Source: Tubulanus polymorphus
Lineage: Eukaryota; Animalia; Nemertea
DNA length: 64,000 nt
NCBI RefSeq assembly: GCF_964204645.1
Contig: NC_134036.1
Coordinates: 6,801,304-6,865,303 of the forward strand
Direction: 5' to 3'
Shown: piece by piece, positions 21,001 to 56,969 of the stretch
Position numbering within the stretch: position 1 is the first letter of the stretch
How the letters are laid out: each line of letters starts with the position of its first letter
Program-made: the position numbers and the translations under genes
The notes under the pieces: model-generated
What the model was told of the DNA's origin: nothing
Database searches by the model: none
Seen by the model: only the letters and a program-made list of their open reading frames with translations

Positions 21001-21758
21001 CGACCCGGTGCAGTGAGGGAGGGAGGGAGGCAGTAGGTCGGTCGTCCGTCCGTTCGCCAGTGTGCCGCTGGTTGTTGTTCGAAAAACGACTAAGTGCTGA
21101 CCGGACCTTGATCAGCGTTACGACCCGGAGCAGTGAGGGAGGGAGGGAGGCAGTAGGTCGGTCGTCCGTCCGTTCACCAGTGTGCCGCTGGTGGTTGTTC
21201 GAAAAACGACTAAGTGCTGACCGGGCCTTGATCAGCGTTACGACCCGGTGCAGTGAGGGAGGGAGGGAGGCACTAGGACAGTCGTCCGCCCGTTAGTCAG
21301 TGTGTCGGCGGTTGTTGTTCGAAAAACGACTAAGTGCTGACCGGGCCATGAGCAGCGTTACGACCCGGCACCGGTCAGGAAGGGAGGGAGGGTGGCAGTA
21401 GGTCGGTCGTCCGTTCGTTGGTCAGTGTGCCGGCGGTGGTAGTTCGAAAAACGACTAAGTGCTGACCGGGCCTTGATCAGCGTTACGACCCGGCGCTGGT
21501 CAGGGCGGGAGGGAGGGAGGCAGTAGGTCGGTCGTCCATCCGTTCGTCAGTGTGCCGGCGGTATTAGTTCGAAAAACGACTAAGTGCTGACCGGGCCTAG
21601 ATCCGCGTTACGACTCGGTGCAGTGAGGGAGGGAGAGAGGCAGTAGGTCGGTCGTCCGTCCGGTCGTCAGTGTGCCGGCGGTGGTTGTTCGAAAAACGAC
21701 TAAGTGCTGACCGGGCCTTGATCAGCGTTACGACCCGGAGCATTGAGGGAGGGAGGGA

Positions 21759-27700: not shown

Positions 27701-28148
27701 GTCGTCCATCCGTTCGTCAGTGTGCCGGCGGTGGTTGTTCGAAAAACGACTAAGTGCTGACCGGGCCATGATCAGCGTTACGACCCGGTGCAGTGAGGGA
27801 GGGAGGGAGGCACTAGGACAGTCGTCCGCCCGTTAGTCAGTGTGTCGGCGGTTGTTGTTCGAAAAACGACTAAGTGCTGACCGGGCCATGAACAGCGTTA
27901 CGACCCGGCACCGGTCAGGGAGGGAGGCAGTAGGTCGGTCGTCCGTCCGTTCGTCATTGTGCCGGCGGTGGTAGTTCGAAAAACGACTAAGTGCTGACCG
28001 GGCCTTGATCAGCGTTACGACCCGGAGCATTGAGGGAGGGAGGGAGGCAGTAGGTCGGTCGTCCGTCCGTTTGTCAGTGTGCCGGCAGCGATGGTTGTTC
28101 GAAAAATGACTAAGGGCTGACCGGGCCTTGATCAGCGTTACGACCCGG
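21759..28148 (+). repeat. Near-identical segmental copy of array positions 1-6386 (offset 21758, then 21762)
   Basis: The same order of monomer variants occurs, including rare ones (GGGTTATGCTCAG at ~953 and ~22711; GGAAGAGAGGAAGGGTGTTAG; GTGCTTACC). ORF-track pairs 236/21994, 944/22702, 1826/23584 and 4286/26044 share the offset. One extra GGGA near 26310 shifts it by 4. Confidence 0.93.
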
Positions 28149-31100: not shown

Positions 31101-31620
31101 CGGGAGGGAGGGAGGCAGTAGGTCGGTCGTCCATCCGTTCGTCAGTGTGCCGGCGGTGGTAGTTCGAAAAACGACTAAGTGCTGACCGGGCCTAGATCAG
31201 CGTTACGACCCGGTGCAGTGAGGGAGGGAGGGAGGCAGTAGGTCGGTCGTCCGTCCGGTCGTCAATGTGCTGGCGGTGGTTGTTCGAAAAACGACTAAGT
31301 GCTGACCGGGCCTTGATCAGCGTTACGACCCGGTGCAGTGAGGGAGGGAGGGAGGAACTAGGACAGTCGTCCGCCCGTTAGTCAGTGTGTCGGCGGTTGT
31401 TGTTCGAAAAACGACTAAGTGCTGACCGGGCCATGAACAGCGTTACGACCCGGCACCGGTCAGGAAGGGAGGGAGAGTGGCAGTAGGTCGGTCGTCCGTT
31501 CGTTGGTCAGTGTGCCGGCGGTGGTAGTTCGAAAAACGACTAAGTGCTGACCGGGCCTTGATCAGCGTTACGACCCGGAGCAGTGAGGGAGGGAGGGAGG
31601 CAGTAGGTCGGTCGTCCGTC

Positions 31621-34600: not shown

Positions 34601-37555
34601 TAAGTGCTGACCGGGCCTTGATCAGCGTTACGACCCGGTGCAGTGAGGGAGGGAGGGAGGCACTAGGACAGTCGTCCGCCCGTTAGTCAGTGTGCCGGCG
34701 GTGGTTGTTCGAAAAACGACTAAGTGCTGACCGGGCCTTGATCAGCGTTACGACCCGGAGCTTTGAGGGAGGGAGGGAGGCAGTAGGTCGGTCGTCCGTC
34801 CGTTTGTCAGTGTGCCGGCAGTGATGGTTGTTCGAAAAAATGACTAAGGGCTGACCGGGCCTTGATCAGCGTTACGACCCGGCGCTGGTCAGGGCGGGAG
34901 GGAGGGAGGCAGTAGGTCGGTCGTCCATCCGTTCGTCAGTGTGCCGGCGGTGGTAGTTCGAAAAACGACTAAGTGCTGACCGGGCCTAGATCAGCGTTAC
35001 GACCCGGTGCAGTGAGGGAGGGAGGGAGGCAGTAGGTCGGTCGTCCGTCCGGTCGTCAGTGTGCCGGCGGTGGTTGTTCGAAAAACGACTAAGTGCTGAC
35101 CGGGCCATGATCAGCGTTACGACCCGGTAGAGTGAGGGAGGGAGGGAGGAACTAGGACAGTCGTCCGCCCGTTAGTCAGTGTGTCGGCGGTTGTTGTTCG
35201 AAAAACGACTAAGTGCTGACCGGGCCATGAACAGCGTTACGACCCGGCACCGGTCAGGAAGGGAGGGAGGGTGGCAGTAGGTCGGTCGTCCGTTCGTTGG
35301 TCAGTGTGCCGGCGGTGGTAGTTCGAAAAACGACTAAGTGCTGACCGGGCCTTGATCAGCGTTACGACCCGGGGCAGTGAGGGAGGGAGGGAGGCAGTAG
35401 GTCGGTCGTCCGTCCATTCGTCAGTGTGCCGGCGGTGGTAGTTCGAAAAACGACTAAGTGCTGACCGGGCCATGAACAGCGTTACGACCCGGCACCGGTC
35501 AGGAAGGGAGGAAGGGTGTTAGTAGGTCGGTCGTCCATCCGTTCGTCAGTGTGCCGGCGGTGGTAGTTCGAAAAACGACTAAGTGCTGACCGGGCCTTGA
35601 TCAGCGTTACGACCCGGTACAGTGAGGGAGGGAGGGAGGCAGTAGGTCGGTCGTCCGTCCGTTCGTCAGTGTGCCGGCGGTGGTTGTTCGAAAAACGACT
35701 AAGTGCTGACCGGGTCATGATCAGCGTTACGACCCGGTGCAGTGAGGGAGGGAGGGAGGGAGGCAGTAGGTCGGTCGTCCATCCGTTCGTCAGTGTGCCG
35801 GCGGTGGTTGTTCGAAAAACGACTAAGTGCTGACCGGGCCTTGATCAGCGTTACGACCCGGTGCAGTGAGGGAGGGAGGGAGGGAGGCAGTAGGTCGGTC
35901 GTCCATCCGTTCGTCAGTGTGCCGGCGGTGGTTGTTCGAAAAACGACTAAGTGCTGACCGGGCCATGAACAGCGTTACGACCCGGCACCGGTCAGGAAGG
36001 GAGGGAGGGTGGCAGTAGGTCGATCGTCCGTTCGTTCGTCAGTGTGCCGGCGGTGGTTGTTCGAAAAACGACTAAGTGCTGACCGGGCCATGAACAGCGT
36101 TACGACCCGGCACCGGTCAGGAAGGGAGGGAGGGTGGCAGTAGGTCGGTCGTCCGTTCGTTGGTCAGTGTGCCGGCGGTGGTAGTTCGAAAAACGACTAA
36201 GTGCTGACCGGGCCTTGATCAGCGTTACGACCCGGTGCAGTGAGGGAGGGAGGGAGGCAGTAGGTCGGTCGTCCGTCCGTTCGTCAGTGTGCCGGCGGTG
36301 GTTGTTCGAAAAACGACTAAGTGCTGACCGGGCCATGAACAGCGTTACGACCCGGCACCGGTCAGGAAGGGAGGGAGGGTGGCAGTAGGTCGGTCGTCCG
36401 TTCGTTGGTCAGTGTGCCGGCGGTGGTAGTTCGAAAAACGACTAAGTGCTGACCGGGCCATGAACAGCGTTACGACCCGGCACCGGTCAGGAAGGGAGGG
36501 AGGGTGGCAGTAGGTCGGTCGTCCATCCGTTCGTCAGTGTGCCGGCGGTGGTGTTTCGAAAAACGACTAAGTGCTTACCGGGCCTTGATCAGCGTTACGA
36601 CCCGGTGCAGTGAGGGAGGGAGGGAGGGAGGCAGTAGGTCGGTCGTCCATCCGTTCGTCAGTGTGCCGGCGGTGGTTGTTCGAAAAACGACTAAGTGCTG
36701 ACCGGGCCATGATCAGCGTTACGACCCGGTGCAGTGAGGGAGGGAGGGAGGCACTAGGACAGTCGTCCGCCCGTTAGTCAGTGTGTCGGCGGTTGTTGTT
36801 CGAAAAACGACTAAGTGCTGACCGGGCCATGAACAGCGTTACGACCCGGCACCGGTCAGGGAGGGAGGCAGTAGGTCGGTCGTCCGTCCGTTCGTCATTG
36901 TGCCGGCGGTGGTAGTTCGAAAAACGACTAAGTGCTGACCGGGCCTTGATCAGCGTTACGACCCGGAGCATTGAGGGAGGGAGGGAGGCAGTAGGTCGGT
37001 CGTCCGTCCGTTTGTCAGTGTGCCGGCAGCGATGGTTGTTCGAAAAATGACTAAGGGCTGACCGGGCCTTGATCAGCGTTACGACCCGGAGCATTGAGGG
37101 AGGGAGGGAGGCAGTAGGTCGGTCGTCCATCCGTTCGTCAGTGTGCCGGCGGTGGTAGTTCGAAAAACGACTAAGTGCTGACCGGGCCATGAACAGCGTT
37201 ACGACCCGGCACCGGTCAGGAAGGGAGGGAGGGTGGCAGTAGGTCGGTCGTCCGTCCGTTCGTCAGTGTGCCGGCGGTGGTAGTTCGAAAAACGACTAAG
37301 TGCTGACCGGGCCATGAACAGCGTTACGACCCGGCACCGGTCAGAAAGGGAGGGAGGGTGGCAGTAGGTCGGTCGTCCATCCGTTCGTCAGTGTGCCGGC
37401 GGTGGTAGTTCGAAAAACGACTAAGTGCTGACCGGGCCTTGATCAGCGTTACGACCCGGTACAGTGAGGGAGGGAGGGAGGCAGTAGGTCGGTCGTCCGT
37501 CCGTTCGTCAGTGTGCCGGCGGTGGTTGTTCGAAAAACGACTAAGTGCTGACCGG
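31621..37555 (+). repeat. Higher-order duplication inside the satellite: 31621-34246 repeated at 34930-37555 (offset 3309, ~27 monomers)
   Basis: Private variants GGTAGAGTGAG, GGTCGATCG, GGTGTTTCGA and TCAGAAAGGG each occur twice 3309 bp apart. ORF-track pairs 31928/35237, 32791/36100, 33195/36504 and 34015/37324 agree. Confidence 0.9.
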
Positions 37556-40500
37556 GCCTTGATCAGCGTTACGACCCGGGGCAGTGAGGGAGGGAGGGAG
37601 GCAGTAGGTCGGTCGTCCGTCCGTTCGTCAGTGTGCCGGCGGTGGTAGTTCGAAAAACGACTAAGTGCTGACCGGGCCATGAACAGCGTTACGACCCGGC
37701 ACCGGTCAGGAAGGGAGGAAGGGTGTTAGTAGGTCGGTCGTCCATCCGTTCGTCAGTGTGCCGGCGGTGGTAGTTCGAAAAACGACTAAGTGCTGACCGG
37801 GCCTTGATCAGCGTTACGACCCGGTACAGTGAGGGAGGGAGGGAGGCAGTAGGTCGGTCGTCCGTCCGTTTGTCAGTGTGCCGGCAGTGATGGTTGTTCG
37901 AAAAAATGACTAAGGGCTGACCGGGCCTTGATCAGCGTTACGACCCGGCGCTGGTCAGGGCGGGAGGGAGGGAGGCAGTAGGTCGGTCGTCCATCCGTTC
38001 GTCAGTGTGCCGGCGGTGGTAGTTCGAAAAACGACTAAGTGCTGACCGGGCCTAGATCAGCGTTACGACCCGGTGCAGTGAGGGAGGGAGGGAGGGAGGC
38101 AGTAGGTCGGTCGTCCGTCCGGTCGTCAGTGTGCCGGCGGTGGTTGTTCGAAAAACGACTAAGTGCTGACCGGGCCTTGATCAGCGTTACGACCCGGTGC
38201 AGTGAGGGAGGGAGGGAGGCACTAGGACAGTCGTCCGCCCGTTAGTCAGTGTGCCGGCGGTGGTTGTTCGAAAAACGACTAGGTGCTGACCGGGCCTTGA
38301 TCAGCGTTACGACCCGGTGCAGTGAGGGAGGGAGGGAGGCAGTAGGTCGGTCGTCCATCCGTTCGTCAGTGTGCCGGCGGTGGTAGTTCGAAAAACGACT
38401 AGGTGCTGACCGGGCCTTGATCAGCGTTACGACCCGGTGCAGTGAGGGAGGGAGGGAGGCAGTAGGTCGGTCGTCCGTCCGTTCACCAGTGTGCCGCTGG
38501 TGGTAGTTCGAAAAACGACTAAGTGCTGACCGGGCCTTGATCAGCGTTACGACCCGGTGCAGTGAGGGAGGGAGGCAGGCAGTAGGTCGGTCGTCCGTCC
38601 GTTCGTTAGTGTGCCGGCGGTGGTTGTTCGAAAAACGACTATGTGCTGACCGGGCCTTGATCAGCGTTACGACCCGGTGCAGTTAGGGAGGGAGGGAGGG
38701 AGGCAGTAGGTCCGTCGTCCGCCCGTTAGTCAGTGTGTCGGCGGTTGTTGTTCGAAAAACGACTAAGTGCTGACCGGGCCATGAACAGCGTTACGACCCG
38801 GCACCGGTCAGGAAGGGAGGGAGGGTGGCAGTATGACGGTCGTCCGTTCGTTCGTCAGTGTGCCGGCGGTGGTAGTTCGAAAAACGACTAAGTGCTGACC
38901 GGGCCTTGATCAGCGTTACGACCCGGTGCAGTGAGGGAGGGAGGGAGGGAGGCAGTAGGTCGGTCGTCCATCCGTTCGTCAGTGTGCCGGCGGTGGTAGT
39001 TCGAAAAACGACTAAGTGCTGACCGGGCCTTGATCAGCGTTACGACCCGGTGCAGTGAGGGAGGGAGGGAGGCAGTAGGTCGGTCGTCCGTCCGTTCGTC
39101 AGTGTGCCGGCGGTGGTTGTTCGAAAAACGACTATGTGCTGACCGGGCCTTGATCAGCGTTACGACCCGGTGCAGTTAGGGAGGGAGGGAGGGAGGAACT
39201 AGGACAGTCGTCCGCCCGTTAGTCAGTGTGTCGGCGGTTGTTGTTCGAAAAACGACTAAGTGCTGACCGGGCCATGAACAGCGTTACGACCCGGCACCGG
39301 TCAGGAAGGGAGGGAGGGTGGCAGTAGGTTGGTCGTCCGTCCGTTCGTCAGTGTGCCGGCGGTGGTTGTTCGAAAAACGACTAAGTGCTGACCGGGCCTT
39401 GATCAGCGTTACGACCCGGAGCAGTGAGGGAGGGAGGGAGGTAGTAGGTCGGTCGTCCGTTCGTTCGTCAGTGTGCCGGCGGTGGTTGTTCGAAAAACGA
39501 CTAAGTGCTGACCGGGCCTTGATCAGCGTTACGACCCGGCACCGGTCAGGGAGGGAGGGAGGGAGGCAGTAGGTCGGTCGTCCGTCCGTTCGTCATTGTG
39601 CCGGCGGTGATTGTTCGAAAAACGACTAAGTGCTGACCGGGCCTTAATCAGCGTTACGACCAGGCACCGGTCAGGGAGGGAGGGAGGGAGGCAGTAGGTC
39701 GGTCGTCCATCCGTTCGTCAGTGTGCCGGCGGTGGTAGTTCGAAAAACGACTAAGTGCTGACCGGGCCTAGATCAGCGTTACGACCCGTTGCAGTGAGGG
39801 AGGGAGGGAGGCAGTAGGTCGGTCGTCCGTCCGGTCGTCAGTGTGCCGGCGGTGGTTGTTCGAAAAACGACTAAGTGCTGACCGGGCCTTGATCAGCGTT
39901 ACGACCCGGTGCAGTGAGGGAGGGAGGGAGGCACTAGGACAGTCGTCCGCCCGTTAGTCAGTGTGTCGGCGGTTGTTGTTCGAAAAACGACTAAGTGCTG
40001 ACCGGGCCATGAACAGCGTTACGACCCGGCACCGGTCAGGAAGGGAGGGAGGGTGGCAGTAGGTCGGTCGTCCGTCCGTTCGTCAGTGTGCCGGCGGTGG
40101 TTGTTCGAAAAACGAATAAGTGCTGACCGGGCCTTAATCAGCGTTACGACCCGGCACCGGTCAGGGAGGGAGGGAGGGAGGCAGTAGGTCGGTCGTCCGT
40201 CCGTTCGTCAGTGTGCCGGCGGTGGTTGTTCGAAAAACGACTAAGTGCTGACCGGGCCTTGATCAGCGTTACGACCCGGAGCAGTGAGGGAGGGAGGGAG
40301 GCAGTAGGTCGGTCGTCTGTCCGTTCGCCAGTGTGCCGGCGGTGGTTGTTCGAAAAACGACTAAGTGCTGACCGGGCCTTGATCAGCGTTACGACCCGGA
40401 GCATTGAGGGAGGGAGGGAGGGAGTAGGTCGGTCGTCCGTCCGTTTGTCAGTGTGCCGGCAGTGATGGTTGTTCGAAAAACGACTAAGGGCTGACCGGGC

Positions 40501-43500
40501 CTTAATCAGCGTTACGACCCGGCGCTGGTCAGGGAGGGAGGGAGGGAGGCAGTAGGTCGGTCGTCCGTCCGTTCGTCATTGTGCCGGCGGTGATAGTTCG
40601 AAAAACGACTAAGTGCTGACCGGGCCTTGATCAGCGTTACGACCCGGTGCAGTGAGGGAGGGAGGGAGGGAGGAACTAGGACAGTCGTCCGCCCGTTAGT
40701 CAGTGTGTCGGCGGTTGTTGTTCGAAAAACGACTAAGTGCTGACCGGGCCATGAACAGCGTTACGACCCGGCACCGGTCAGGAAGGGAGGGAGGGTGGCA
40801 GTAGGTCGGTCGTCCGTTCGTTGGTCAGTGTGCCGGCGGTGGTAGTTCGAAAAACGACTAAGTGCTGACCGGGCCTTGATCAGCGTTACGACCCGGAGCA
40901 TTGAGGGAGGGAGGGAGGCAGTAGGTCGGTCGTCCGTCCGTTTGTCAGTGTGCCGGCAGTGATGGTTGTTCGAAAAAATGACTAAGGGCTGACCGGGCCT
41001 TGATCAGCGTTACGACCCGGCGCTGGTCAGGGCGGGAGGGAGGGAGGCAGTAGGTCGGTCGTCCATCCGTTCGTCAGTGTGCCGGCGGTGGTAGTTCGAA
41101 AAACGACTAAGTGCTGACCGGGCCTAGATCAGTGTTACGACCCGGTGCAGTGAGGGAGGGAGGGAGGCAGTAGGTCGGTCGTCCGTCCGGTCGTCAATGT
41201 GCTGGCGGTGGTTGTTCGAAAAACGACTAAGTGCTGACCGGGCCTTGATCAGCGTTACGACCCGGTGCAGTGAGGGAGGGAGGGAGGAACTAGGACAGTC
41301 GTCCGCCCGTTAGTCAGTGTGTCGGCGGTTGTTGTTCGAAAAACGACTAAGTGCTGACCGGGCCATGAACAGCGTTACGACCCGGCACCGGTCAGGAAGG
41401 GAGGGAGGGTGGCAGTAGGTCGGTCGTCCGTTCGTTGGTCAGTGTGCCGGCGGTGGTAGTTCGAAAAACGACTAAGTGCTGACCGGGCCTTGATCAGCGT
41501 TACGACCCGGTGCAGTGAGGGAGGGAGGGAGGCAGTAGGTCGGTCGTCCGTCCGTTCGTCAGTGTGCCGGCGGTGGTAGTTCGAAAAACGACTAAGTGCT
41601 GACCGGGCCATGAACAGCGTTACGACCCGGCACCGGTCAGGAAGGGAGGGAGGGTGGCAGTAGGTCGGTCGTCCATCCGTTCGTCAGTGTGCCGGCGGTG
41701 GTAGTTCGAAAAACGACTACGTGCTGACCGGGCCTTGATCAGCGTTACGACCCGGTACAGTGAGGGAGGGAGGGAGGCAGTAGGTCGGTCGTCCGTCCGT
41801 TCGTCAGTTTGCCGGCGGTGGTTGTTCGAAAAACGACTAAGTGCTGACCGGGTCATGATCAGCGTTACGACCCGGTGCAGTGAGGGAGGGAGGGAGGGAG
41901 GCAGTAGGTCGGTCGTCCATCCGTTCGTCAGTGTGCCGGCGATGGTTGTTCGAAAAACGACTAATTGCTGACCGGGCCTTGATCAGCGTTACGACCCGGT
42001 GCAGTGAGGGAGGGAGGGAGGCACTAGGACAGTCGTCCGCCCGTTAGTCAGTGTGCCGGCGGTGGTTGTTCGAAAAACGACTAAGTGCTGATCGGGCCTT
42101 GATCAGCGTTACGACCCGGCACCGGTCAGGGAGGGAGGGAGGGAGGCAGTAGGTCGGTCGTCCGTCCGTTCGTCACTGTGCCGGCGGTGGTAGTTCGAAA
42201 AACGACTAAGTGCTGACCGGGCCTAGATCAGCGTTACGACCCGGTGCAGTGAGGGAGGGAGGGAGGCAGTAGGTCGGTCGTCCGTCCGGTCGTCAGTGTG
42301 CCGGCGGTGGTTGTTCGAAAAACGACTAAGTGCTGACCGGGCCATGATCAGCGTTACGACCCGGTGCAGTGAGGGTGGGAGGGAGGAACTAGGACAGTCG
42401 TCCGCCCGTTAGTCAGTGTGTCGGCGGTTGTTGTTCGAAAAACGACTAAGTGCTGACCGGGCCATGAACAGCGTTACGACCCGGTGCAGTGAGGGAGGGA
42501 GGGAGGGAGGCAGTAGGTCGGTCGTCCGTCCGTTCGTCACTGTGCCGGCGGTGGTAGTTCGAAAAACGACTAAGTGCTGACCGGGCCTAGATCAGCGTTA
42601 CGACCCGGTGCAGTGAGGGAGGGAGGGAGGCAGTAGGTCGGTCGTCCGTCCGGTCGTCAGTGTGCCGGCGGTGGTTGTTCGAAAAACGACTAAGTGCTGA
42701 CCGGGCCATGATCAGCGTTACGACCCGGTGCAGTGAGGGTGGGAGGGAGGAACTAGGACAGTCGTCCGCCCGTTAGTCAGTGTGTCGGCGGTTGTTGTTC
42801 GAAAAACGACTAAGTGCTGACCGGGCCATGAACAGCGTTACGACCCGGTGCAGTGAGGGAGGGAGGGAGGGAGGCAGTAGGTCGGTCGTCCATCCGTTCG
42901 TCAGTGTGCCGGCGATGGTTGTTCGAAAAACGACTAAGTGCTGACCGGGCCTTGATCAGCGTTACGACCCGGTGCAGTGAGGGAGGGAGGGAGGCACTAG
43001 GACAGTCGTCCGCCCGTTAGTCAGTGTGCCGGCGGTGGTTGTTCGAAAAACGACTAGGTGCTGACCGGGCCTTGATCAGCGATACGACCCGGTGCAGTGA
43101 GGGAGGGAGGGAGGGAGGCAGTAGGTCGGTCGTCCATCCGTTCGTCAGTGTGCCGGCGATGGTTGTTCGAAAAACGACTAAGTGCTGACCGGGCCTTGAT
43201 CAGCGTTACGACCCGGTGCAGTGAGGGAGGGAGGGAGGCACTAGGACAGTCGTCCGCCCGTTAGTCAGTGTGCCGGCGGTGGTTGTTCGAAAAACGACTA
43301 AGTGCTGACCGGGCCTTGATCAGCGTTACGACCCGGCACCGGTCAGGGAGGGAGGGAGGGAGGCAGTAGGTCGGTCGTCCGTCCGTTCGTCACTGTGCCG
43401 GCGGTGGTAGTTCGAAAAACGACTAAGTGCTGACCGGGCCTTGATCAGCGTTACGACCCGGAGCATTGAGGGAGGGAGGGAGGCAGTAGGTCGGTCGTCC

Positions 43501-46500
43501 GTCCGTTTGTCAGTGTGCCGGCAGTGATGGTTGTTCGAAAAAATGACTTAGTGCTGACCGGGCCTTGATCAGCGTTACGACCCGGCACCGGTCAGGGAGG
43601 GAGGGAGGGAGGCAGTAGGTCGGTCGTCCGTCCGTTCGTCACTGTGCCGGCGGTGGTAGTTCGAAAAACGACTAAGTGCTGACCGGGCCTTGATCAGCGT
43701 TACGACCCGGAGCTTTGAGGGAGGGAGGGAGGCAGTAGGTCGGTCGTCCGTCCGTTTGTCAGTGTGCCGGCAGTGATGGTTGTTCGAAAAAATGACTAAG
43801 GGCTGACCGGGCCTTGATCAGCGTTACGACCCGGCGCTGGTCAGGGCGGGAGGGAGGGAGGCAGTAGGTCGGTCGTCCATCCGTTCGTCAGTGTGCCGGC
43901 GGTGATAGTTCGAAAAACGACTAAGTGCTGACCGGGCCTAGATCAGCGTTACGACCCGGTGCAGTGAGGGAGGGAGGGAGGCAGTAGGTCGGTCGTACGT
44001 CCGGTCGTCAGTGTGCCGGCGGTGGTTGTTCGAAAAACGACTAAGTGCTGACCGGGCCATGATCAGCGTTACGACCCGGTGCAGTGAGGGAGGGAGGGAG
44101 GAACTAGGACAGTCGTCCGCCCGTTAGTCAGTGTGTCGGCGGTTGTTGTTCGAAAAACGACTAAGTGCTGACCGGGCCATGAACAGCGTTACGACCCGGC
44201 ACCGGTCAGGAAGAGAGGAAGGGTGTTAGTAGGTCGGTCGTCCATCCGTTCGTCAGTGTGCCGGCGGTGGTAGTTCGAAAAACGACTAAGTGCTGACCGG
44301 GCCTTGATCAGCGTTACGACCCGGTACAGTGAGGGAGGGAGGGAGGCAGTAGGTCGGTCGTCCGTCCGTTCGTCAGTGTGCCGGCGGTGGTTGTTCGAAA
44401 AACGACTAAGTGCTGACCGGGTCATGATCAGCGTTACGACCCGGTGCAGTGAGGGAGGGAGGGAGGGAGGCAGTAGGTCGGTCGTCCATCCGTTCGTCAG
44501 TGTGCCGGCGGTGGTTGTTCGAAAAACGACTAAGTGCTGACCGGGCCTTGATCAGCGTTACGACCCGGTGCAGTGAGGGAGGGAGGGAGGGAGGCAGTAG
44601 GTCGGTCGTCCATCCGTTCGTCAGTGTGCCGGCGGTGGTTGTTCGAAAAACGACTAAGTGCTGACCGGGCCATGAACAGCGTTACGACCCGGCACCGGTC
44701 AGGAAGGGAGGGAGGGTGGCAGTAGGTCGGTCGTCCGTTCGTTCGTCAGTGTGCCGGCGGTGGTTGTTCGAAAAACGACTAAGTGCTGACCGGGCCATGA
44801 ACAGCGTTACGACCCGGCACCGGTCAGGAAGGGAGGGAGGGTGGCAGTAGGTCGGTCGTCCGTTCGTTGGTCAGTGTGCCGGCGGTGGTAGTTCGAAAAA
44901 CGACTAAGTGCTGACCGGGCCATGAACAGCGTTACGACCCGGCACCGGTCAGGAAGGGAGGGAGGGTGGCAGTAGGTCGGTCGTCCATCCGTTCGTCAGT
45001 GTGCCGGCGGTGGTAGTTCGAAAAACGACTAAGTGCTGACCGGGCCTTTATCAGCGTTACGACCCGGTACAGTGAGGGAGGGAGGGAGGCAGTAGGTCGG
45101 TCGTCCGTCCGTTCGTCAGTGTGCCGGCGGTGGTTGTTCGAAAAACGACTAAGTGCTGACCGGGTCATGATCAGCGTTACGACCCGGTGCAGTGAGGGAG
45201 GGAGGGAGGGAGGCAGTAGGTCGGTCGTCCATCCGTTCGTCAGTGTGCCGGCGATGGTTGTTCGAAAAACGACTAAGTGCTGACCGGGCCTTGATCAGCG
45301 TTACGACCCGGTGCAGTGAGGGAGGGAGGGAGGCACTAGGACAGTCGTCCGCCCGTTAGTCAGTGTGCCGGCGGTGGTTGTTCGAAAAACGACTAAGTGC
45401 TGACCGGGCCTTGATCAGCGTTACGACCCGGCACCGGTCAGGGAGGGAGGGAGGGAGGCAGTAGGTCGGTCGTCCGTCCGTTCGTCACTGTGCCGGCGGT
45501 GGTAGTTCGAAAAACGACTAAGTGCTGACCGGGCCTTGATCAGCGTTACGACCCGGCGCTGGTCAGGGCGGGAGGGAGGGAGGCAGTAGGTCGGTCGTCC
45601 ATCCGTTCGTCAGTGTGCCGGCGGTGGTAGTTCGAAAAACGACTAAGTGCTGACCGGGTCATGATCAGCGTTACGACCCGGCACCGGTCAGGGAGGGAGG
45701 GAGGGAGGCAGTAGGTCGGTCGTCCGTCCGTTCGTCAGTGTGCCGGCGGTGGTTGTTCGAAAAACGACTAAGTGCTGACCGGGCCTTGATCAGCGTTACG
45801 ACCCGGAGCAGTGAGGGAGGGAGGGAGGCAGTAGGTCGGTCGTCTGTCCGTTCGCCAGTGTGCCGGCGGTGGTTGTTCGAAAAACGACTAAGTGCTGACC
45901 GGGCCTTGATCAGCGTTACGACCCGGAGCATTGAGGGAGGGAGGGAGGGAGTAGGTCGGTCGTCCGTCCGTTTGTCAGTGTGCCGGCAGTGATGGTTGTT
46001 CGAAAAACGACTAAGGGCTGACCGGGCCTTAATCAGCGTTACGACCCGGCGCTGGTCAGGGAGGGAGGGAGGGAGGCAGTAGGTCGGTCGTCCGTCCGTT
46101 CGTCATTGTGCCGGCGGTGATAGTTCGAAAAACGACTAAGTGCTGACCGGGCCTTGATCAGCGTTACGACCCGGTGCAGTGAGGGAGGGAGGGAGGGAGG
46201 AACTAGGACAGTCGTCCGCCCGTTAGTCAGTGTGTCGGCGGTTGTTGTTCGAAAAACGACTAAGTGCTGACCGGGCCATGAACAGCGTTACGACCCGGCA
46301 CCGGTCAGGAAGGGAGGGAGGGTGGCAGTAGGTCGGTCGTCCGTTCGTTGGTCAGTGTGCCGGCGGTGGTAGTTCGAAAAACGACTAAGTGCTGACCGGG
46401 CCTTGATCAGCGTTACGACCCGGAGCATTGAGGGAGGGAGGGAGGCAGTAGGTCGGTCGTCCGTCCGTTTGTCAGTGTGCCGGCAGTGATGGTTGTTCGA

Positions 46501-48148
46501 AAAAATGACTAAGGGCTGACCGGGCCTTGATCAGCGTTACGACCCGGCGCTGGTCAGGGCGGGAGGGAGGGAGGCAGTAGGTCGGTCGTCCATCCGTTCG
46601 TCAGTGTGCCGGCGGTGGTAGTTCGAAAAACGACTAAGTGCTGACCGGGCCTTGATCAGCGTTACGACCCGGTGCAGTGAGGGAGGGAGGGAGGGAGGCA
46701 GTAGGTCGGTCGTCCGTCCGTTCGTCAGTTTGCCGGCGGTGGTTGTTCGAAAAACGACTAAGTGCTGACCGGGTCATGATCAGCGTTACGACCCGGTGCA
46801 GTGAGGGAGGGAGGGAGGGAGGCAGTAGGTCGGTCGTCCATCCGTTCGTCAGTGTGCCGGCGATGGTTGTTCGAAAAACGACTAATTGCTGACCGGGCCT
46901 TGATCAGCGTTACGACCCGGTGCAGTGAGGGAGGGAGGGAGGCACTAGGACAGTCGTCCGCCCGTTAGTCAGTGTGCCGGCGGTGGTTGTTCGAAAAACG
47001 ACTAAGTGCTGACCGGGCCTTGATCAGCGTTACGACCCGGCACCGGTCAGGGAGGGAGGGAGGGAGGCAGTAGGTCGGTCGTCCGTCCGTTCGTCACTGT
47101 GCCGGCGGTGGTAGTTCGAAAAACGACTAAGTGCTAACCGGGCCTAGATCAGCGTTACGACCCGGTGCAGTGAGGGAGGGAGGGAGGCAGTAGGTCGGTC
47201 GTCCGTCCGGTCGTCAGTGTGCCGGCGGTGGTTGTTCGAAAAACGACTAAGTGCTGACCGGGCCATGATCAGCGTTACGACCCGGTGCAGTGAGGGTGGG
47301 AGGGAGGAACTAGGACAGTCGTCCGCCCGTTAGTCAGTGTGTCGGCGGTTGTTGTTCGAAAAACGACTAAGTGCTGACCGGGCCATGAACAGCGTTACGA
47401 CCCGGTGCAGTGAGGGAGGGAGGGAGGGAGGCAGTAGGTCGGTCGTCCATCCGTTCGTCAGTGTGCCGGCGGTGGTTGTTCGAAAAACGACTAAGTGCTG
47501 ACCGGGCCTTGATCAGCGTTACGACCCGGTGCAGTGAGGGAGGGAGGGAGGGAGGCAGTAGGTCGGTCGTCCATCCGTTCGTCAGTGTGCCGGCGGTGGT
47601 TGTTCGAAAAACGACTAAGTGCTGACCGGGCCATGAACAGCGTTACGACCCGGCACCGGTCAGGAAGGGAGAGAGGGTGGCAGTAGGTCGGTCGTCCGTT
47701 CGTTCGTCAGTGTGCCGGCGGTGGTTGTTCGAAAAACGACTAAGTGCTGACCGGGCCATGAACAGCGTTACGACCCGGCACCGGTCAGGAAGGGAGGGAG
47801 GGTGGCAGTAGGTCGGTCGTCCGTTCGTTGGTCAGTGTGCCGGCGGTGGTAGTTCGAAAAACGACTAAGTGCTGACCGGGCCTTGATCAGCGTTACGACC
47901 CGGTGCAGTGAGGGAGGGAGGGAGGCAGTAGGTCGGTCGTCCGTCCGTTCGTCAGTGTGCCGGCGGTGGTTGTTCGAAAAACGACTAAGTGCTGACCGGG
48001 CCATGAACAGCGTTACGACCCGGCACCGGTCAGGAAGGGAGGGAGGGTGGCAGTAGGTCGGTCGTCCGTTCGTTGGTCAGTGTGCCGGCGGTGGTAGTTC
48101 GAAAAACGACTAAGTGCTGACCGGGCCATGAACAGCGTTACGACCCGG

Positions 48149-48592
48149 TGATCGATTGCCTCTAAGATGTCTTCTCTCCAAAAATCAAACTAACGACCAG
48201 GCAATCTCATAGGATCTACTGCTGACAACTGTCCTGGTGGCTGCCAAAAATTGAACTCCCTCTCTCCACTTGTTCCCCAACTTAACTAGTATCTCCCTCT
48301 ACCAAGTTTCAACCACGTGATCTCTCCCTACCAAATTTAGTGTGGTTTCTACAGAATCTGCAGCCTCCATCAACCACTCTCCGCCTAGAAATATATTCCC
48401 AACCACCAACACTACATACCAAGTTTCTGAATCATGTTTTCTGAACTATTCCCTTAGACTAAGGTATTTCTTGTTTGCTTCGTTAAACCCAACTGTTCCC
48501 ATTAAATCATTATTTTTTCCCAGACGTTACTAATATTTATTTCATTATTTGGTTAACCCTAGTCAACTATCATTAACCCTAGTCAACTATCA
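48149..48592 (-). repeat. Candidate 3' LTR (~444 bp)
   Basis: On the minus strand it starts TGATAGTTG immediately after a G-rich PPT and ends ...CAATCGATCA at the satellite junction. This gives TG...CA termini with an imperfect inverted repeat (TGATAG-TTG vs TGATCGATTG). No second LTR is present to confirm the distal boundary. Confidence 0.6.
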
Positions 48593-48615
48593 TCCCCCCA
48601 GGCTTAATTTTTTTT
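48593..48615 (-). promoter_or_regulatory. Polypurine tract (plus-strand primer site)
   Basis: Minus strand reads AAAAAAAATTAAGCCTGGGGGGA directly followed by TG, a typical Gypsy PPT/LTR junction. It lies downstream of env. Confidence 0.7.
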
Positions 48616-50082
48616 CGCCCCGAAAAACAAATGGCAACCATCCAGACATGAACTTTATTCAACCAGATTAAATATAAGATAAAACAATATACAAACAATA
48701 CAATACAGATACGACAGCATTCTTAAGGAATTTAATTTAACATAATAATCATCAGTAGTTTATATTATCATAATTAATATCATCATTCATTTATACATGG
48801 CAATTTATTTATTCATTGAACTAATTTTATTCATTAATGCATTATTAAATATGTAAAAATTTTTTTCCACGATTCTATTTTCACTTCCGCAGCAGTTCAG
48901 CATACAACGCGCAAAACAAAAGTTGATCATTTATGTACGAAAATTGAATGCACAACAAGTTCAATTAAGTCATTTAATTAACAAGAAAGTGTCGAAGCAT
49001 GAATCGGTACCACTCACACACAATAACGCACCCATTTAGATGGCGAATCAGAATCTTCTCGAATAACGGCGGCTCTCGCGTCGACAAACGGTCTCCATTC
49101 AAAAGCATCAAATCAAGTAACCGTACAAATGACATGAGTACACAACAAAATACGGTAAGAGACGTACCATAAGGTATACGACATATTAAACATTAAGACG
49201 CAGAACAAACAGGTATTTATTATAATGCGAATACATCGCCACAGACGAACACTAATCAATTCGATTACAGCGCAAACGATGACGAAGCGGTTTTCTTTTC
49301 TTTTCGAACGAACAACTGACAGCTAATAATACAGAATGATGGCCATAGGTGTTAACGAACAAGCTAGCACAGTCTCACAGCTCGAGTCGGTTTTATTTTT
49401 CGAATGGACCATACTACGATCCTGAATATAATTATCTATCACACCGTCCATAATATACGGGACTTCCAGGGATCGCAAGAACGACGGCACCATATTGAGA
49501 ATCACTCTCCACAACGATTCAGCAGCGGTATAACGGAACAAGCGACCGAACGCTCGACAATCTGCACGAACAGCGAATTGGGCGAAGTCCGAACAACGCA
49601 TTCAGATCCAGGATACGGACGATCGCGCTAAGTTGAGGTCACGTAAAGCGAATCCGGTGACTGCAAGTATATGTGAAGATGGCGACGGCTACGGTCTCAC
49701 GACGATCTCGAAACAATACAGTCCATTCCCGACGAGTTCGACTCTGGCCGAAACGAAAGTGACATGGAACAACCCAAACAAAACTAAGCAATCAAACCCA
49801 AAACACTCCCCATGGTTTTGCAGATAAAGATAGCATAGCAATAATATATGAGATTTTCAGTAAATAGATAAGGTACAATTCACTCCAAATGCTAAACCAA
49901 AAGATCCCGATAAATGATAATTATGCAACGATATACGATATAACATACGTTATATAGTTCCAAATGAACGTAATATCTTTTATAAATAATAAAGGAATTT
50001 GCAATTAATGACTATAGAACCAAACGAACACAGCAACACGACTACATTCCAAATACGAATAATTTCATAAAATATTCAAAAC

Positions 50083-52704
50083 TTAAGGCTGATAAAGTGA
50101 CAAGTCCGGATAAAGACCTGACCTCCCACCTGGTCTCCCAGCTAAACTAGATGCATCAATATTTCGAATCATGTCTTGAGAATATTGAATCTCATGAGGT
50201 ATACCTTTATCTTCACTGATCGACAAAGGAACCAAAAGATCGTGATGTTTAACATATATCCGTAAAGTAAATGATGAGCTCATAATCAATCTTCCAATTC
50301 GCCTATATAGAGAAGGCTTGACCGGAATTTTATCCGGAAAATCAATAGCAATTCCATCATACTGAATTTTACAAGGTGTAACCCAATCAAGATTGATAAA
50401 TAATTTAAAGAAATGAGAATTACAATGTAGCTTACGTAAAGCAGGGGATCCAAGTAAGGAAATACTGCCCGCACAGGCATTAAGATCAATTAATGGAAGT
50501 AAGATACATTCATTCCAATCCGAAATCTCTAAAAGTAGTTGTGATTTACAACGTTGAACCATATTACGCCTGCCCCTTAGAAAGGTAAATAGGTATTTAA
50601 TATCATAACACAGGAAATGCAACGCACAGTAGATAATAGCCAGAAGAACTATCGTGTCAACTAGAAAATTGGAATCGTCGTCAATTAGCGATTGAGCAAC
50701 CCGCGAAGACTGTTCTAAAAATGAAATAGTCCTATTAGACTGTATAACCGTTGCCCCAGCAAGTGGTGCTGCATGAGCTGCACCCAAGGCTGCAACCGGA
50801 AAAATACCCCCTGGATTATACCGTATCATGAAGAAAATATAAACTGACATAGCAAGCGCCGCTATGCTCAGAATAGTAGGAACCGATATAATGCCTATAG
50901 ACGATGGAGATGAAAATATATGTCGCAAATTATCTTTAGCTAGTTCATTCTTTAACGCGTCGGCCTTTGAGGCGAACAAATCTACATTAGACTTATGCGT
51001 TGAAGCCAATTTCTTAAGATCCGTTGAAAATTTAGCGTCCTTTGATGCTACCAAATCCCATGATTCTTTATTCAGTTTTAAGGGTGGAACCTCAACCATA
51101 GGCGCTTTCGATAACTCATTCCCCCTTATCTTTCTCAAATCTGCAGCATTAGAGAACAACAAATGCAGCACAGGTAAATTTACTACATGCAAAACAGTTT
51201 TATCCTCCTTTCCAATATGACAACCTGTGAGTTTATAAGGGATCCGAAAAGATGACGCAATTATAGAGCAAAAACAAGGGATTGTCATTACGCACAACCT
51301 GCAACCATTGATAGACTTAACCTGTCGGTCAGAACAATGCATAGTCCAAACTTCGTCAGCAGATGACAGTAAATAACGCCCATCCGCTAATTCATAACTA
51401 CCTTCAAACAGTAACGCTTCCTCATATCTAATGTCACACAATTTCATTATAGCCTCAGGTTGGTCCCAAAATAGCGCTGACGCACACGTTAATTTATGAC
51501 GGGAATTGAGAGATTTAGTTGTACTACACACTTTAAGGTCTCTACCGTTGCAGGAAAGTAAAAAATCACTATCGAATTCGGTATAATATTCGTTATCACT
51601 TGTAACGGCGATATACTGAGGTAAACCAAAAATTTGAGTCGTATTAGCACTAGTGGCATTCGACGGTACAGGTAATGTATCAATATGATAAACATCCATA
51701 AAACCAGCCAAACTATGGATGGGAATGGCGATCGTTATATATAAATACGTTTCAGTCTGCGTGAACGTGATATCCCGCATTTGATAATAAAAACTAGGCT
51801 GACTATGCGTAACCTTAAAACTAGGATAATGATCGCTGAGAATATCCTGTACATTATTAATTACTTTATTGATCTGTTCAGGACCCACGAGAGAAATAGG
51901 CAAAAAGCCATCCAATAATAACTGAGTTGCCTGTAGAAAATTCTCCGACTGGCCAACTACTACCCCAAAACGGTATTGGTAGTCAACCAAGTTCCTCATT
52001 AAAATGGACAAAGCCGAAACTGTGACATTTAAACGATCCAATTTATGAAATATTTCCTTCCGAGAATTTCGGTACTCTACAGTCAAAATATTATAAGAAT
52101 CGGCAAACCTCTTAATTGTTTCATGATTCTCTTTAATGGCCACCATAGCATTATCAAGCCTTTCGTTAGTTGTGTTCATGAATGAATTAAGCAACTTGCC
52201 GTCTTGTACAACCTGATCAGCCAAGGCTGTTACCCCTGACTCCACTTTGAGGACATGTTGCCTAAGTGCGTCCACGTCCTCTTCAGTAGCCGTGCCAAAT
52301 AGCGACTTCGCAAAATTTCCTACAAAGTTTAATAAAGCTCTTTTCCCACGACCACTTGCCCTAACAGGAATCAAAGATTTAACGGTATTCATATTAGCGT
52401 TAAGCCGTGTTCGTGTTTCTTTAATCTGAGAATTTAATCGCTCAATAATCGTATTTAACATCCCACAACCGTTATACGGGTGAAAATGATAATGTATAGG
52501 GCATGATAGAGGGGTTATAATATCTAGGTCAAATTTAGGCCAGGGAATACAGAAGGTATGCCTATACTTGGAAACACCATTAAGAATATTTGTGAACTTA
52601 TTGAAGACAATTCCCCAATTCAACATAACAACTGAATTCGCCGAAGTGTCAACCGGTTCCAACGTCGTCATGTAAACAGCCAGTAATAAAATGTAAAGCC
52701 TCAT
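50083..52704 (-). CDS. env: Envelope glycoprotein, class I fusion protein of the baculovirus F / errantivirus Env type, with long C-terminal extension (873 aa)
   Basis: Signal peptide MRLYILLLAVYM. Furin site RGKR (aa119-122) is followed by fusion peptide ALLNFVGNFAKSLFGTATEED, matching the F-protein pattern RxKR-xLxNFVGxxxKxLFGT. Heptad region, Cys-rich ectodomain (aa385-495), several N-X-S/T sequons and a TM helix at aa603-627. ACCATG start context, no internal stops. Confidence 0.9.
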   Translation of the reverse strand: MRLYILLLAVYMTTLEPVDTSANSVVMLNWGIVFNKFTNILNGVSKYRHTFCIPWPKFDLDIITPLSCPIHYHFHPYNGCGMLNTIIERLNSQIKETRTRLNANMNTVKSLIPVRASGRGKRALLNFVGNFAKSLFGTATEEDVDALRQHVLKVESGVTALADQVVQDGKLLNSFMNTTNERLDNAMVAIKENHETIKRFADSYNILTVEYRNSRKEIFHKLDRLNVTVSALSILMRNLVDYQYRFGVVVGQSENFLQATQLLLDGFLPISLVGPEQINKVINNVQDILSDHYPSFKVTHSQPSFYYQMRDITFTQTETYLYITIAIPIHSLAGFMDVYHIDTLPVPSNATSANTTQIFGLPQYIAVTSDNEYYTEFDSDFLLSCNGRDLKVCSTTKSLNSRHKLTCASALFWDQPEAIMKLCDIRYEEALLFEGSYELADGRYLLSSADEVWTMHCSDRQVKSINGCRLCVMTIPCFCSIIASSFRIPYKLTGCHIGKEDKTVLHVVNLPVLHLLFSNAADLRKIRGNELSKAPMVEVPPLKLNKESWDLVASKDAKFSTDLKKLASTHKSNVDLFASKADALKNELAKDNLRHIFSSPSSIGIISVPTILSIAALAMSVYIFFMIRYNPGGIFPVAALGAAHAAPLAGATVIQSNRTISFLEQSSRVAQSLIDDDSNFLVDTIVLLAIIYCALHFLCYDIKYLFTFLRGRRNMVQRCKSQLLLEISDWNECILLPLIDLNACAGSISLLGSPALRKLHCNSHFFKLFINLDWVTPCKIQYDGIAIDFPDKIPVKPSLYRRIGRLIMSSSFTLRIYVKHHDLLVPLSISEDKGIPHEIQYSQDMIRNIDASSLAGRPGGRSGLYPDLSLYQP

Positions 52705-52740
52705 GGTAGTATCCTAAAAGAGAACGAAATATAGTTACTA
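52705..52740 (-). promoter_or_regulatory. Splice acceptor for subgenomic env mRNA
   Basis: Minus strand TAGTAAC (branch-like) ...TTTCGTTCTCTTTTAG|GATACTACCATG: polypyrimidine tract, AG at 52715-52714, then 9 nt to the env ATG. It lies in the 52-bp gap between the pol stop and env. Confidence 0.75.
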
Positions 52741-52756
52741 CATTCCGTGAACCAAC

Positions 52757-53821
52757 TTATTCCTTTAGTTCCTTCGTTTTAAAATAGTTCTCAATTAAAC
52801 TTGGGTTTAATATATTTTCCTCAGGTTCGAAAGTAGACTCGCCTTTCGTATAACCCTCCCACCATATCTTAAAATGGCGTTTACCATTGATAACTTTATC
52901 ACCTAAAATCTCTTTAACTATAAAAATGTCATCTGGAATATCAACTAACTCATCTTCCTGATTTGCTAAATCCGATCTTAAAGGTTCGCCAAAACAAGCG
53001 TCTTGATCTCCTATTGGAAGATCGTCCCTGTGAACAAACTTCTTCAACCTATCTGCTGCTATAGGACTTTTCATATATTTACCAGTTTTAACACATTTGA
53101 CTCTAAATGTAGAGGGACCTATTGACTTTACAATCTGGAACGGTCCACGATAACGCTTTTGTAACTTCCTAGTCAACCCTTTCTTAAAATTTGGAAAGAA
53201 AACCCAACAGTGGTCCCCAACTTCAAAGTTGACCGGGGTAGCATGTTTATCGCTGATCTTTTTGAATGCAGCTTGTGCCGTAAGGATCGCACCTTTAGCT
53301 ATCTTGTAAACATACCGTAATTTATCTTGGGCCAGTCTGACATGTGTGTTTATCTTTAGAGGATTATACATAGGTTCCAGTAATGCACTATCTAGCGGCG
53401 TGTTCGGATGCCTTAAAAACATTAAGTAAAATGGACTATAATTCGATATTGACTTCATTGGACTAGTATTATACGCAAAGACTGCAGCACGCAAGTAAGT
53501 GGTCCAATCGGTTTGATTATCAGAAATCATCATAGATAATAAGGATTTAATTGACTTGTTCGTAACTTCACAGAGACCATTGCATTTAGGATTGAATGAA
53601 GCAGTCTTCTTATGTGTAATATTCGAGAATTTAAGTATTTCCTCCACAATCTCACTTAAGAAATTACTTCCGCGATCACTTAATAATTCTTTAGGGAAAG
53701 CATATCTTAGGAAAATTTCATCATACATGATTCTAGCAATAGTAGGAGCAGTTATATCAGGAACCGCAAATGCTTCACAATATCGTGTAAAATTACACAC
53801 AAAGACCACAATTTGGTTCAT
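52757..53821 (-). pseudogene. pol: 3' part of Gypsy pol: integrase catalytic core (N-terminally truncated), GPY/F domain and chromodomain
   Basis: LLSDRGSNF (D49) ... NGLCE (E85) gives D-X35-E. Also W..YL....FAYNTS, SPFYLMF, KLQKRYRGPFQIV, and chromodomain FIVKEILG...FKIWWEGY...STFEPEENI (aa299-348). The HHCC finger and first catalytic Asp are missing, and upstream in-frame sequence is not integrase-like. Confidence 0.92.
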
Positions 53822-53875
53822 AAAACATAAAAGTGTGAGTAAAGTGTGAGTGAAACATTGAATATTTATATTTGA

Positions 53876-54190
53876 ATGAGTTTTAATAAAAACCTCGTTA
53901 TGAAAATGAAGAAAGAAGCAGAAGAACCCAAATTGAAAATCGAAATCAATGAAACCGATAAATTATTTTCACAGTTCAACATTAAAAAATATATCTCAGC
54001 AACAAATTTAGTGTATGCAAGACACTATAAAATTGATAACATTACTATAATTAATCAAATATTATCTAAAGAAACATATTTAATTACGGAACTAGTAGAT
54101 ACTTTTGATAATGGAATCAAAAATCCTAAATATTTAATACAGTTTTCAATTATAAAGAAACTTAAGAAATATTCTCAAAACTCCTTTTAA
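53876..54190 (+). CDS. Hypothetical protein, 104 aa, K/N/I-rich
   Basis: A 315-bp open frame in extremely AT-rich DNA, where stops are expected often. Its TAA overlaps the next ATG. No recognisable domain. Confidence 0.45.
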   Translation: MSFNKNLVMKMKKEAEEPKLKIEINETDKLFSQFNIKKYISATNLVYARHYKIDNITIINQILSKETYLITELVDTFDNGIKNPKYLIQFSIIKKLKKYSQNSF

Positions 54191-54492
54191 TGAAAGAGAT
54201 AGTGATTTAATACTTTCTAAATTCTAAAGATTACAACGATTTGATTAACTTAAGAATTGGAAAAAGACAATTATATTATTCAAATTTTGATAATAAACAA
54301 ATTATCAATAATGAAAATTCATCAAATATTCGAATTCAATGTCATTTAGATGATGAATTAAAAAAATTCAATCCAAATGAAAAGGTTTATTGTTATTGCG
54401 GCGGCAAATATTTAAAATCACATAAATCAAAGCATTATCAAACAATTAAACATATCAAATATGAAAAGAATAATAATTATATATTGAAATAA
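54190..54492 (+). pseudogene. Small zinc-finger protein with one premature stop
   Basis: ATG at 54190 is in frame with track ORF 54241-54492 and is interrupted by TAA at 54208-54210 (MKEIVI*YFLNSKDYNDLINLR...). The C-terminal CYCGGKYLKSHKSKHYQTIKH has C-x-C...H...H spacing. Confidence 0.5.
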
Positions 54493-54547
54493 GATTAAGC
54501 TGTATGAGTAATAAGATATTTCAAATTACTATTTTTTTCTTAAATAG

Positions 54548-54685
54548 ATGGAAGATTTCATTCCCACTGGAAAACGTGATTTCAAGCATCATCTTGTAGC
54601 AGGAGGATTAATTTTGGCAGCGCTTTACTTTTATTACGAGTATATCAGTAAGGATTTGATGAATGAAAAAAACAAAATTGAGTAA
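54548..54685 (+). CDS. Putative 45-aa single-pass membrane protein (below ORF-track cutoff)
   Basis: Translates as MEDFIPTGKRDFKHHLVAGGLILAALYFYYEYISKDLMNEKNKIE*, with hydrophobic core LVAGGLILAALYFYY. Locally higher GC than its flanks. Confidence 0.4.
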   Translation: MEDFIPTGKRDFKHHLVAGGLILAALYFYYEYISKDLMNEKNKIE

Positions 54686-54806
54686 AAAATTAAAGAAATT
54701 AAATGGGAATCATAAAACTAAAAAGAATAAAACAGTTAATTCAGTAAATGATTTATAGGATTAAGACAGAATCTTTTAATTCATTTTGTATATTTTAACT
54801 ATAAAA

Positions 54807-55067
54807 ATGAGTGAAAGTAAGGTATTAGAAATATTACATCTTATATATAAAAATCAAGAACGCATTAAATTGATTATTATGATTTCTGGAATGGTTTCTT
54901 TTTCAGTTTATAGTATAAAACAGCTGTTAGAATTTTATGATAATTGCAAAATTAGATACCCCGAATTAAAAGATAACATAAATTATCTATCAGATAGATT
55001 GAATAATATTAAGTGTTGTGAAATATGCAATAAAAAGTATAAAAATAAAGAGTTTAAAAAATCATAG
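54807..55067 (+). CDS. Hypothetical 86-aa protein with hydrophobic segment and C-terminal CxxC
   Basis: AAAATG start, then LIIMISGMVSFSVYSI (hydrophobic), LKDNINYLSDRLNNI (heptad-like) and CCEIC. Confidence 0.35.
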   Translation: MSESKVLEILHLIYKNQERIKLIIMISGMVSFSVYSIKQLLEFYDNCKIRYPELKDNINYLSDRLNNIKCCEICNKKYKNKEFKKS

Positions 55068-56106
55068 ATATATTCACGAATTAAATGATAAATTATATGA
55101 ATGAAAATAAGATAAATGATATTTCAATAAATGCCCCCTGTGTCTTTATTGTCTGTAGTAGTCTTAGTTCTTTTAGGACATAAAGAATAAATCTTTATTC
55201 TATTAGTACTTCAAAAAAAAGCAAAGAGTTTGAGAAATCATAAATACATTCATGAATTAAATGATAAATTATATAATTCAAATTAAGTTATTCATATATG
55301 ATATTTTAATTCTTTACATAAACTAGAATAACACAAGATGATACTAACTTATTCAAGGTAAAGTTTTTCTAGTTGAATTCTAGTCAAATGTAATGTAATT
55401 TAAAGTAAACAAGAATTGAATAGATTCAATGAGAATTATAATAAGTTTCTTTAACTTTAACTAAATAATACTAACTCATTCAATTCTAATGCTTTTCTTA
55501 TTGAATCTATTCAAAATGTTATAGCAAATAAAAACACTAGCCAGTCTTAATTTAAAGAATTATATCATATTCTAGGTCTGAATAAAGAATATGATATTCA
55601 TCTGATAGATTTTAAATAGTACTTATGAAAATAAAATAATACCAATCCAGTGTTAAAATGTAAAATATATTGGTTGGAAATATAAATTATATTAGCTGAA
55701 AATATAAAATATATTAGTTAAAAATATGAATATGATAAATCTGTGAAGACATAGAGGATATTTCAAATAATTAAAGAAAATTATTATAATTCTCATATTT
55801 TCTAATATATCTTGTTAATATTAAATTTCTTTACATTTGACAAGAATTCAACTAAAAATTTAATAAACAAACTAATATCGCTCTTGTCAGAAATAAAGAA
55901 TAATTTTTATTCAATACGTATTTGATACGTATTTAATACATTAAAAAAGTGATGAGAGTATTTTGGATAAAAATATATATCTCTCTTATTTATTTTATAT
56001 GAATATGTCTCTCATCTATTTTTTATATGAATATGAATATGAATATGAATATGTGTCCCTTATTTCTTTTTTATATAAAAATAAATATTAATATAGCTGC
56101 AAAGTC

Positions 56107-56346
56107 TTAGAATCCTGTTCAACGGTGGATTTCGACAAAGCATTTGATAAGGCACAACATCAGCCATTACTAAACAGGCTATTAGGAATCAGTGATCAAT
56201 GATAGGTCGCTCAAATAGCTCAGAAGTTATATCTCTGAACGAAAACTTGTAGCCGAAATCAACGGAACGCCCCATCTTGGAATAAGTCAGTCTAACTAGT
56301 GGAGTCGCGCAAGGTAGTATCCTAAGTCGTCTTCTGTTTAATGTCC
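56107..56346 (+). pseudogene. Decayed non-LTR (LINE) reverse-transcriptase fragment
   Basis: Manual translation across frameshifts gives VDFDKAFDKAQHQPLLNRLLGI, LK*LRSYISERKLVAEING and TSGVAQGSILSRLLFNV. These match the LINE RT motifs DFxKAFD, WxxSYLSxR and SGVPQGSxLGPLLF. Confidence 0.85.
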
Positions 56347-56414
56347 TGACAAATCACATACACAGTAATCCAAAATATACCAGACCGAGTAAATTTCCAA
56401 AACGACCTTAACAC

Positions 56415-56940: not shown

Positions 56941-56969
56941 AAAATTTCTTGGGCTCCGCAGTAACTTAA

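Follow-up and report, generated by a model that had tools for sequence, protein, structure and literature searches.

A truncated enveloped Ty3/gypsy element with an integrase chromodomain and a predicted matrix-like domain in its Env tail

The segment 48149..53821 of the DNA analyzed here (the window, 64,000 nucleotides from Tubulanus polymorphus) corresponds to the 3' third of one Ty3/gypsy retroelement; all its parts lie on the minus strand, and the copy is a remnant of an errantivirus-type element. It combines a chromodomain integrase with an open F-type env, and its LTR lies at a satellite. In the explanation that we consider best, and hold with modest confidence, Env would be cut into the F fusion protein and a second membrane-anchored protein, the inner domain of which is predicted to be matrix-like and to engage the host machinery for budding via an LYPxL motif. 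The features of the window on which this is based are the following (evidence in parentheses):

1..48148, no strand: satellite array (TRF, 391.8 copies, 89% matches; 371 anchor matches)
48149..48592, minus: 3' LTR of 444 bp with TGAT...ATCA termini, one copy in the window (sequence)
48593..48599, minus: polypurine tract GGGGGGA, adjoining the LTR (sequence)
48600..50082, minus: untranslated region of ~1.5 kb from the env stop to the polypurine tract (no ORF of at least 100 aa, no Rfam match)
50083..52704, minus: open env ORF, 873 aa (ORF, Baculo_F, modelled F fold)
50101..50115, minus: LYPDL, ALIX-type late-domain motif, aa 864-868 (sequence motif)
50230..50544, minus: conserved predicted beta-sandwich domain, aa ~721-825, matrix-like by structure (model, structure searches, profile)
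50605..50667, minus: membrane anchor 2, aa ~680-700, with basic residues after it (hydropathy)
50761..50823, minus: putative internal signal-peptide-like stretch (alignment of relatives)
50824..50898, minus: membrane anchor 1, aa ~603-627, where the F ectodomain ends (hydropathy)
52270..52350, minus: furin-type site RGKR (aa 119-122) and fusion peptide (aa 123-145) (alignment)
52714..52730, minus: candidate splice acceptor for the env mRNA, pyrimidine tract and AG (sequence only)
52757..53821, minus: integrase remnant (Pfam, PDB sequence search, Pol relatives)
52778..52924, minus: group-I-type chromodomain, aromatic cage intact (Pfam, alignments)
53822..55300, no strand: AT-rich repeated sequence, foreign to the element, replacing its 5' two-thirds (GC 0.20-0.22)

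The break lies within the integrase core, at ~53821; this truncation is absent from an earlier note on this DNA. The missing parts are gag, PR, RT, RH, the zinc-binding domain and first catalytic Asp of the integrase, and the 5' LTR, with no second LTR being found within the window. Six full-length Pol relatives align to the window at 53812-52775 only. Because homology reaches the joint and ends there, the 401-aa stop-to-stop frame and the Met at 53821 were ruled out as a genuine start. The joint is bridged by one contig of run X2 (53255-53852), which continues 31 letters beyond it with 0 differences. A contig of run X1 ends at 53821 with three letters unmatched, a hint that the sequence past this position is different in other copies. 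The LTR with TG...CA ends and the polypurine tract are those of Ty3/gypsy elements (Metaviridae). The copy does not have the intact gag-pol-env between two LTRs that makes an errantivirus in the sense of Chary & Hayashi (eLife 2026, PMC13524379).

The AT-rich segment 53822-55300 contains three short plus-strand ORFs (104, 93 and 95 aa). A zinc-finger-like Cys/His motif occurs in one of them, and none had a convincing match in Pfam or PHROG. The contig depth of the segment in X1 is high. A piece of some DNA element, Polinton-like or other, would be one guess at its nature. The Rfam search of 47-64 kb gave 0 matches.

The integrase remnant comprises the rear part of the catalytic core, in which the second Asp and the Glu are kept, an SH3-like part and the chromodomain. 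The earlier note had proposed profile searches with rve, Chromo and Baculo_F. In the remnant, Chromo scored above its cut-off (E 1e-8, 35.4 vs. 25.1 bits) and rve slightly below it (E 2.7e-7, 31.2 vs. 32.6 bits, profile positions 26-102 only), with a weak SH3_Tf2-1 match, and Baculo_F matched env with an E of 1.8e-11. The best match of the integrase in the PDB sequence search was Ty3 Gag-Pol (E 3e-21), followed by HP1/CBX chromodomains, and the remnant is 34-38% identical to PR-RT-RH-IN polyproteins, placing it among the Ty3/gypsy integrases. As the earlier note had stated, this integrase ends in a chromodomain, the arrangement of chromoviruses. The three cage aromatics (F300, W321 and Y324) are all present in the alignment to CBX3 and 22 relatives. 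The chromodomain is thus, by alignment, of the methyl-lysine type and of group I, which PMC3350952 defines by three cage aromatics at the HP1 Y24/W45/Y48 positions. According to the same source, the group-I chromodomain of MAGGY binds H3K9me2/3 and directs integration; by analogy, a general bias toward heterochromatin is plausible for the integration of our element.

Most of the top integrase relatives bear Chromo. A FastTree integrase tree was built from 183 proteins, most of them unnamed. The window element has a long branch there, and its neighbors are 37 proteins in which no chromodomain was detected, although these labels are confounded by fragmentary gene models; the tree is uninformative on placement and speaks at most weakly against an easy membership in a published chromodomain clade. 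Two other sequences have further domains after the chromodomain. In P0036, the integrase-chromodomain runs on in one ORF into a Rhabdo_glycop_FD match (E 8e-7), so that a class III-type env is fused in frame to a chromodomain element, and in P0019 (aa 1590-1673) Pol terminates with a chromodomain and DUF4326, an unusual additional C-terminal domain.

The env ATG (52704) lies 52 bases beyond the integrase stop (52757-59), and the spacer holds the pyrimidine tract with its AG located 9 nt upstream of the ATG, from which we infer that env would be expressed from a spliced mRNA. The ORF is stop-free, and its furin-type site is followed by ALLNFVG..LFGTAT, with R101, L103, G108 and LFGTAT invariant in 12/12 aligned envs. 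The ectodomain was modelled with a pLDDT of 65 and a pTM of 0.38, and its structure search gave 209 rows at E<=0.001, with F structures of paramyxoviruses and pneumoviruses as matches (best E 3e-8). An env with an F-type ectodomain, furin site and fusion peptide after pol is what PMC13524379 describes for errantiviruses. The earlier description of an enveloped Ty3/gypsy element with a chromodomain, including the position, length, furin site and fusion peptide of its env, is borne out. The nearest named env relative is from the scallop Argopecten irradians (30%). The PDB sequence search with env gave 0 matches at E<=1, and the scans of viral contigs gave 1 and 13 pattern matches, with 0 confirmed. 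In L007, the integrase and an F-type env are separated by an ORF at 1231-1686 that matches Pfam SBSPON_C (E 4e-11) and could possibly encode a second surface protein.

The pairing of chromodomain and env, taken as a novelty in the earlier note, is already known, and the window element is one more, broken, example; as far as architecture goes, this refutes the novelty by the standard that the earlier note had set. A chromodomain-carrying errantivirus clade has been reported from Cnidaria, Mollusca and Annelida (PMC13524379); in supplement 4 of that paper, 28/139 representatives are labelled Chromodomain and every insect row reads "no chromodomain," and 11 of the 12 chromodomain representatives looked up had ENV_F, the remaining one having ENV_HSV. 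Its "ancient errantiviruses" from non-insect hosts, such as Apac_4, Ofus_3, Cari_2, Gmag_4, Dlin_6 and Pfla_1, likewise have an integrase C-terminal chromodomain, then an env of the F type (furin site, fusion peptide) and a 3' LTR, whereas the window copy is truncated and would fail the intactness filter of that paper. The same layout was found in the unrelated metagenome contig L002 (gag, PR-RT-RH-IN-chromodomain, F env). Chromoviruses with group I chromodomains (MAGGY, Tcn1 and Sushi) share the C-terminal chromodomain with three cage aromatics but, unlike the window element, are without env. Insect errantiviruses (gypsy, ZAM and Idefix) also have a Baculo_F-related env after pol and a candidate splice acceptor, and differ in being without a chromodomain (PMC13524379, supplement 4). 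As to the potentially infectious lineage suggested earlier, the window copy, lacking gag and most of pol, could not infect on its own.

It is the Env tail that probably makes the element a new variant of the published layout. Insect errantivirus Env proteins are not known to have more than a single anchor with a short tail. Here, hydropathy revealed two hydrophobic membrane anchors, with the second trailing the first by 76-79 aa in 6/6 envs measured (the L002 anchor 1 is below the hydropathy threshold and its position was taken from the alignment). The alignment of relatives shows, between the anchors, a basic residue, a short hydrophobic run and a small-x-small end, suggestive of an internal signal peptide. 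The domain following anchor 2 was modelled with a pLDDT of 78 and a pTM of 0.69 and is conserved, the leave-one-out profile giving an E of 2.5e-7 vs. a best of 0.3 among 1000 shuffles. In structure searches the predicted beta-sandwich aligned with Mononegavirales matrix proteins over 87-106 residues, and near-full-length alignments came only from three different Mononegavirales families. The top Foldseek PDB rows were TEAD domains with a TM of ~0.2. The atlas search gave no usable match for the window tail and weak jelly-roll fragments for P0003, and the tail profile had 0 matches among PDB sequences. A Pfam bCoV_NS8 match to one member of the tail family (E 0.002) was rejected as chance. As a lead, we predict a matrix fold of the Borna M/Ebola-type VP40 kind. 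Downstream of it, the window Env carries the LYPDL motif, and LYPxL also terminates P0003 and L006. A known budding motif is located at the extreme C-terminus of three envs with just 20-27% identity to the window env.

The fold would be like that of the Mononegavirales matrix proteins (Borna M, filovirus VP40 and paramyxovirus M), and there the late motifs sit on the matrix proteins. In retroviruses, membrane lining and ESCRT recruitment are done by Gag MA and p6/p9; Ty3/gypsy Gag is not known to have a matrix domain. No matrix domain in a retroelement env or chuvirus G was found in the literature searched, which was mostly open-access. The methods of PMC13524379 cover env ectodomains only, and its available text, with 0 occurrences of "matrix" or "cytoplasmic," does not discuss a second anchor, matrix-like domain or late motif. 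Among the structure-search rows were long (1047-1235 aa) chu-like glycoproteins of Mogami, Atrato Chu-like 5, Shayang Fly 1 and Taiyuan leafhopper viruses, in which the same matrix-like domain may be present. A separate M gene is usually said to be missing from chuviruses.

In an intact member of the family, Env would be made from the spliced mRNA and cut by signal peptidase at its N-terminus and again at the internal signal, with furin priming F. The second product would consist of a short lumenal piece, anchor 2, the cytosolic matrix-like domain and the late motif. It would line the membrane, gather F and the Gag capsid, and call ALIX/ESCRT via LYPxL for particle release. The chromodomain, by analogy, would bias integration toward H3K9-methylated chromatin generally. 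The window copy probably integrated into a satellite monomer, would later have lost its 5' part, and would now be inert, at most a source of Env.

The satellite at this insertion is made of ~120-125-bp monomers with a 245-bp higher period; its G skew is strong (+0.26), it contains runs of GGGA, and 350 monomers include at least 137 variants. In reads, it is very abundant. No foreign insert was found inside the 48-kb array, all gaps between anchor matches being monomer multiples. The last LTR base meets the array end exactly, the terminal CA abutting satellite ...GACCCGG, so that the contact with a satellite of at least 48 kb, already seen in the earlier note, holds to the base. The LTR start has a 20-bp tandem duplication, and no similarity was found between LTR and satellite. 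In run X5, raw-read depth was ~52-55 for the element and ~140 for the LTR, against ~29 for flanks that we chose as 5/16 bins from 53668 onward, excluding the high-copy repeats as well as three bins of low depth (7-15). This corresponds to 2 internal copies by the chosen flanks, and up to about 8 if the low bins are the single-copy level; under either choice, the family is small at >=90% identity. Element depth is near flank depth in X1 and X2, and two LTR variants occur in reads at ~45:55.

Elsewhere in the window, very high-copy interspersed repeats occupy 56050-58034 (X5 depth 700-3200), where ~56100-56340 resembles, by eye, a decayed LINE RT fragment, and a 50/75-bp minisatellite lies at 57900-58120. 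Other libraries contain deletion alleles at 58360-58721, 59452-59529 and 49184-49238 that skip 360, 76 and 53 bases, respectively; the third is within the 3' untranslated region of the element.

Our preferred explanation has to be weighed against a simpler one, less probable in our view yet a serious competitor, in which the copy is a truncated plain member of the published chromodomain and F-env errantiviruses, the tail is a conserved accessory domain with a generic beta-sandwich (e.g., for cytoplasmic sorting or restriction evasion) and the satellite contact is incidental. Both the restriction of near-full-length structure alignments to three Mononegavirales families and the known budding motif ending such divergent envs argue against it.

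That the chromodomain homes specifically into satellite or centromeric chromatin while the lineage spreads between cells seems improbable. Such homing would be consistent with the intact cage, the MAGGY precedent (PMC3350952) and an LTR terminus coinciding with the array end to the base, as is typical of integrase-made joints. However, this is a single junction, with the second flank and target duplication lost, the 48 kb of array hold no insert, and copies are few by X5 depth. Moreover, the joint is bridged by none of the listed contigs, and its TG is also the commonest satellite continuation, fitting 147/370 monomers, so that a 2-bp microhomology or an assembly join is possible. We give the least credence to env having been kept by the host, as a domesticated, syncytin-like gene at a heterochromatin edge after gag-pol loss. 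The 2.6-kb ORF is indeed open though the 5' two-thirds of the element are gone, the truncation joint recurs in X2, which is an independent library, and both X1 and X2 show a depth close to flank depth; but the integrase remnant is just as open, which fits youth over selection, the promoter-bearing 5' LTR is missing, and the LTR depth and two LTR variants suggest further copies.

Returning to the processed Env that we favor, its broader form is more tentative, falling somewhat short of our confidence in the explanation for this element: in a branch of invertebrate enveloped retroelements, env would be a full envelopment kit, made of an F fusogen, a signal-peptidase-released anchored matrix of the Borna/Ebola/paramyxovirus fold and an ESCRT late domain. 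If true, the negative-strand RNA virus matrix fold would be common to retroelements and chu-like glycoprotein polyproteins, and a gag-pol transposon would become a virus able to bud by gaining a single ORF. A matrix-like second Env product would be a concrete, testable answer to how env-bearing Ty3/gypsy elements wrap in membrane and bud. Through the tail, the F gene of such elements would also be linked with another hallmark fold of negative-strand RNA viruses, a point relevant to the origin of the envelope cassette.
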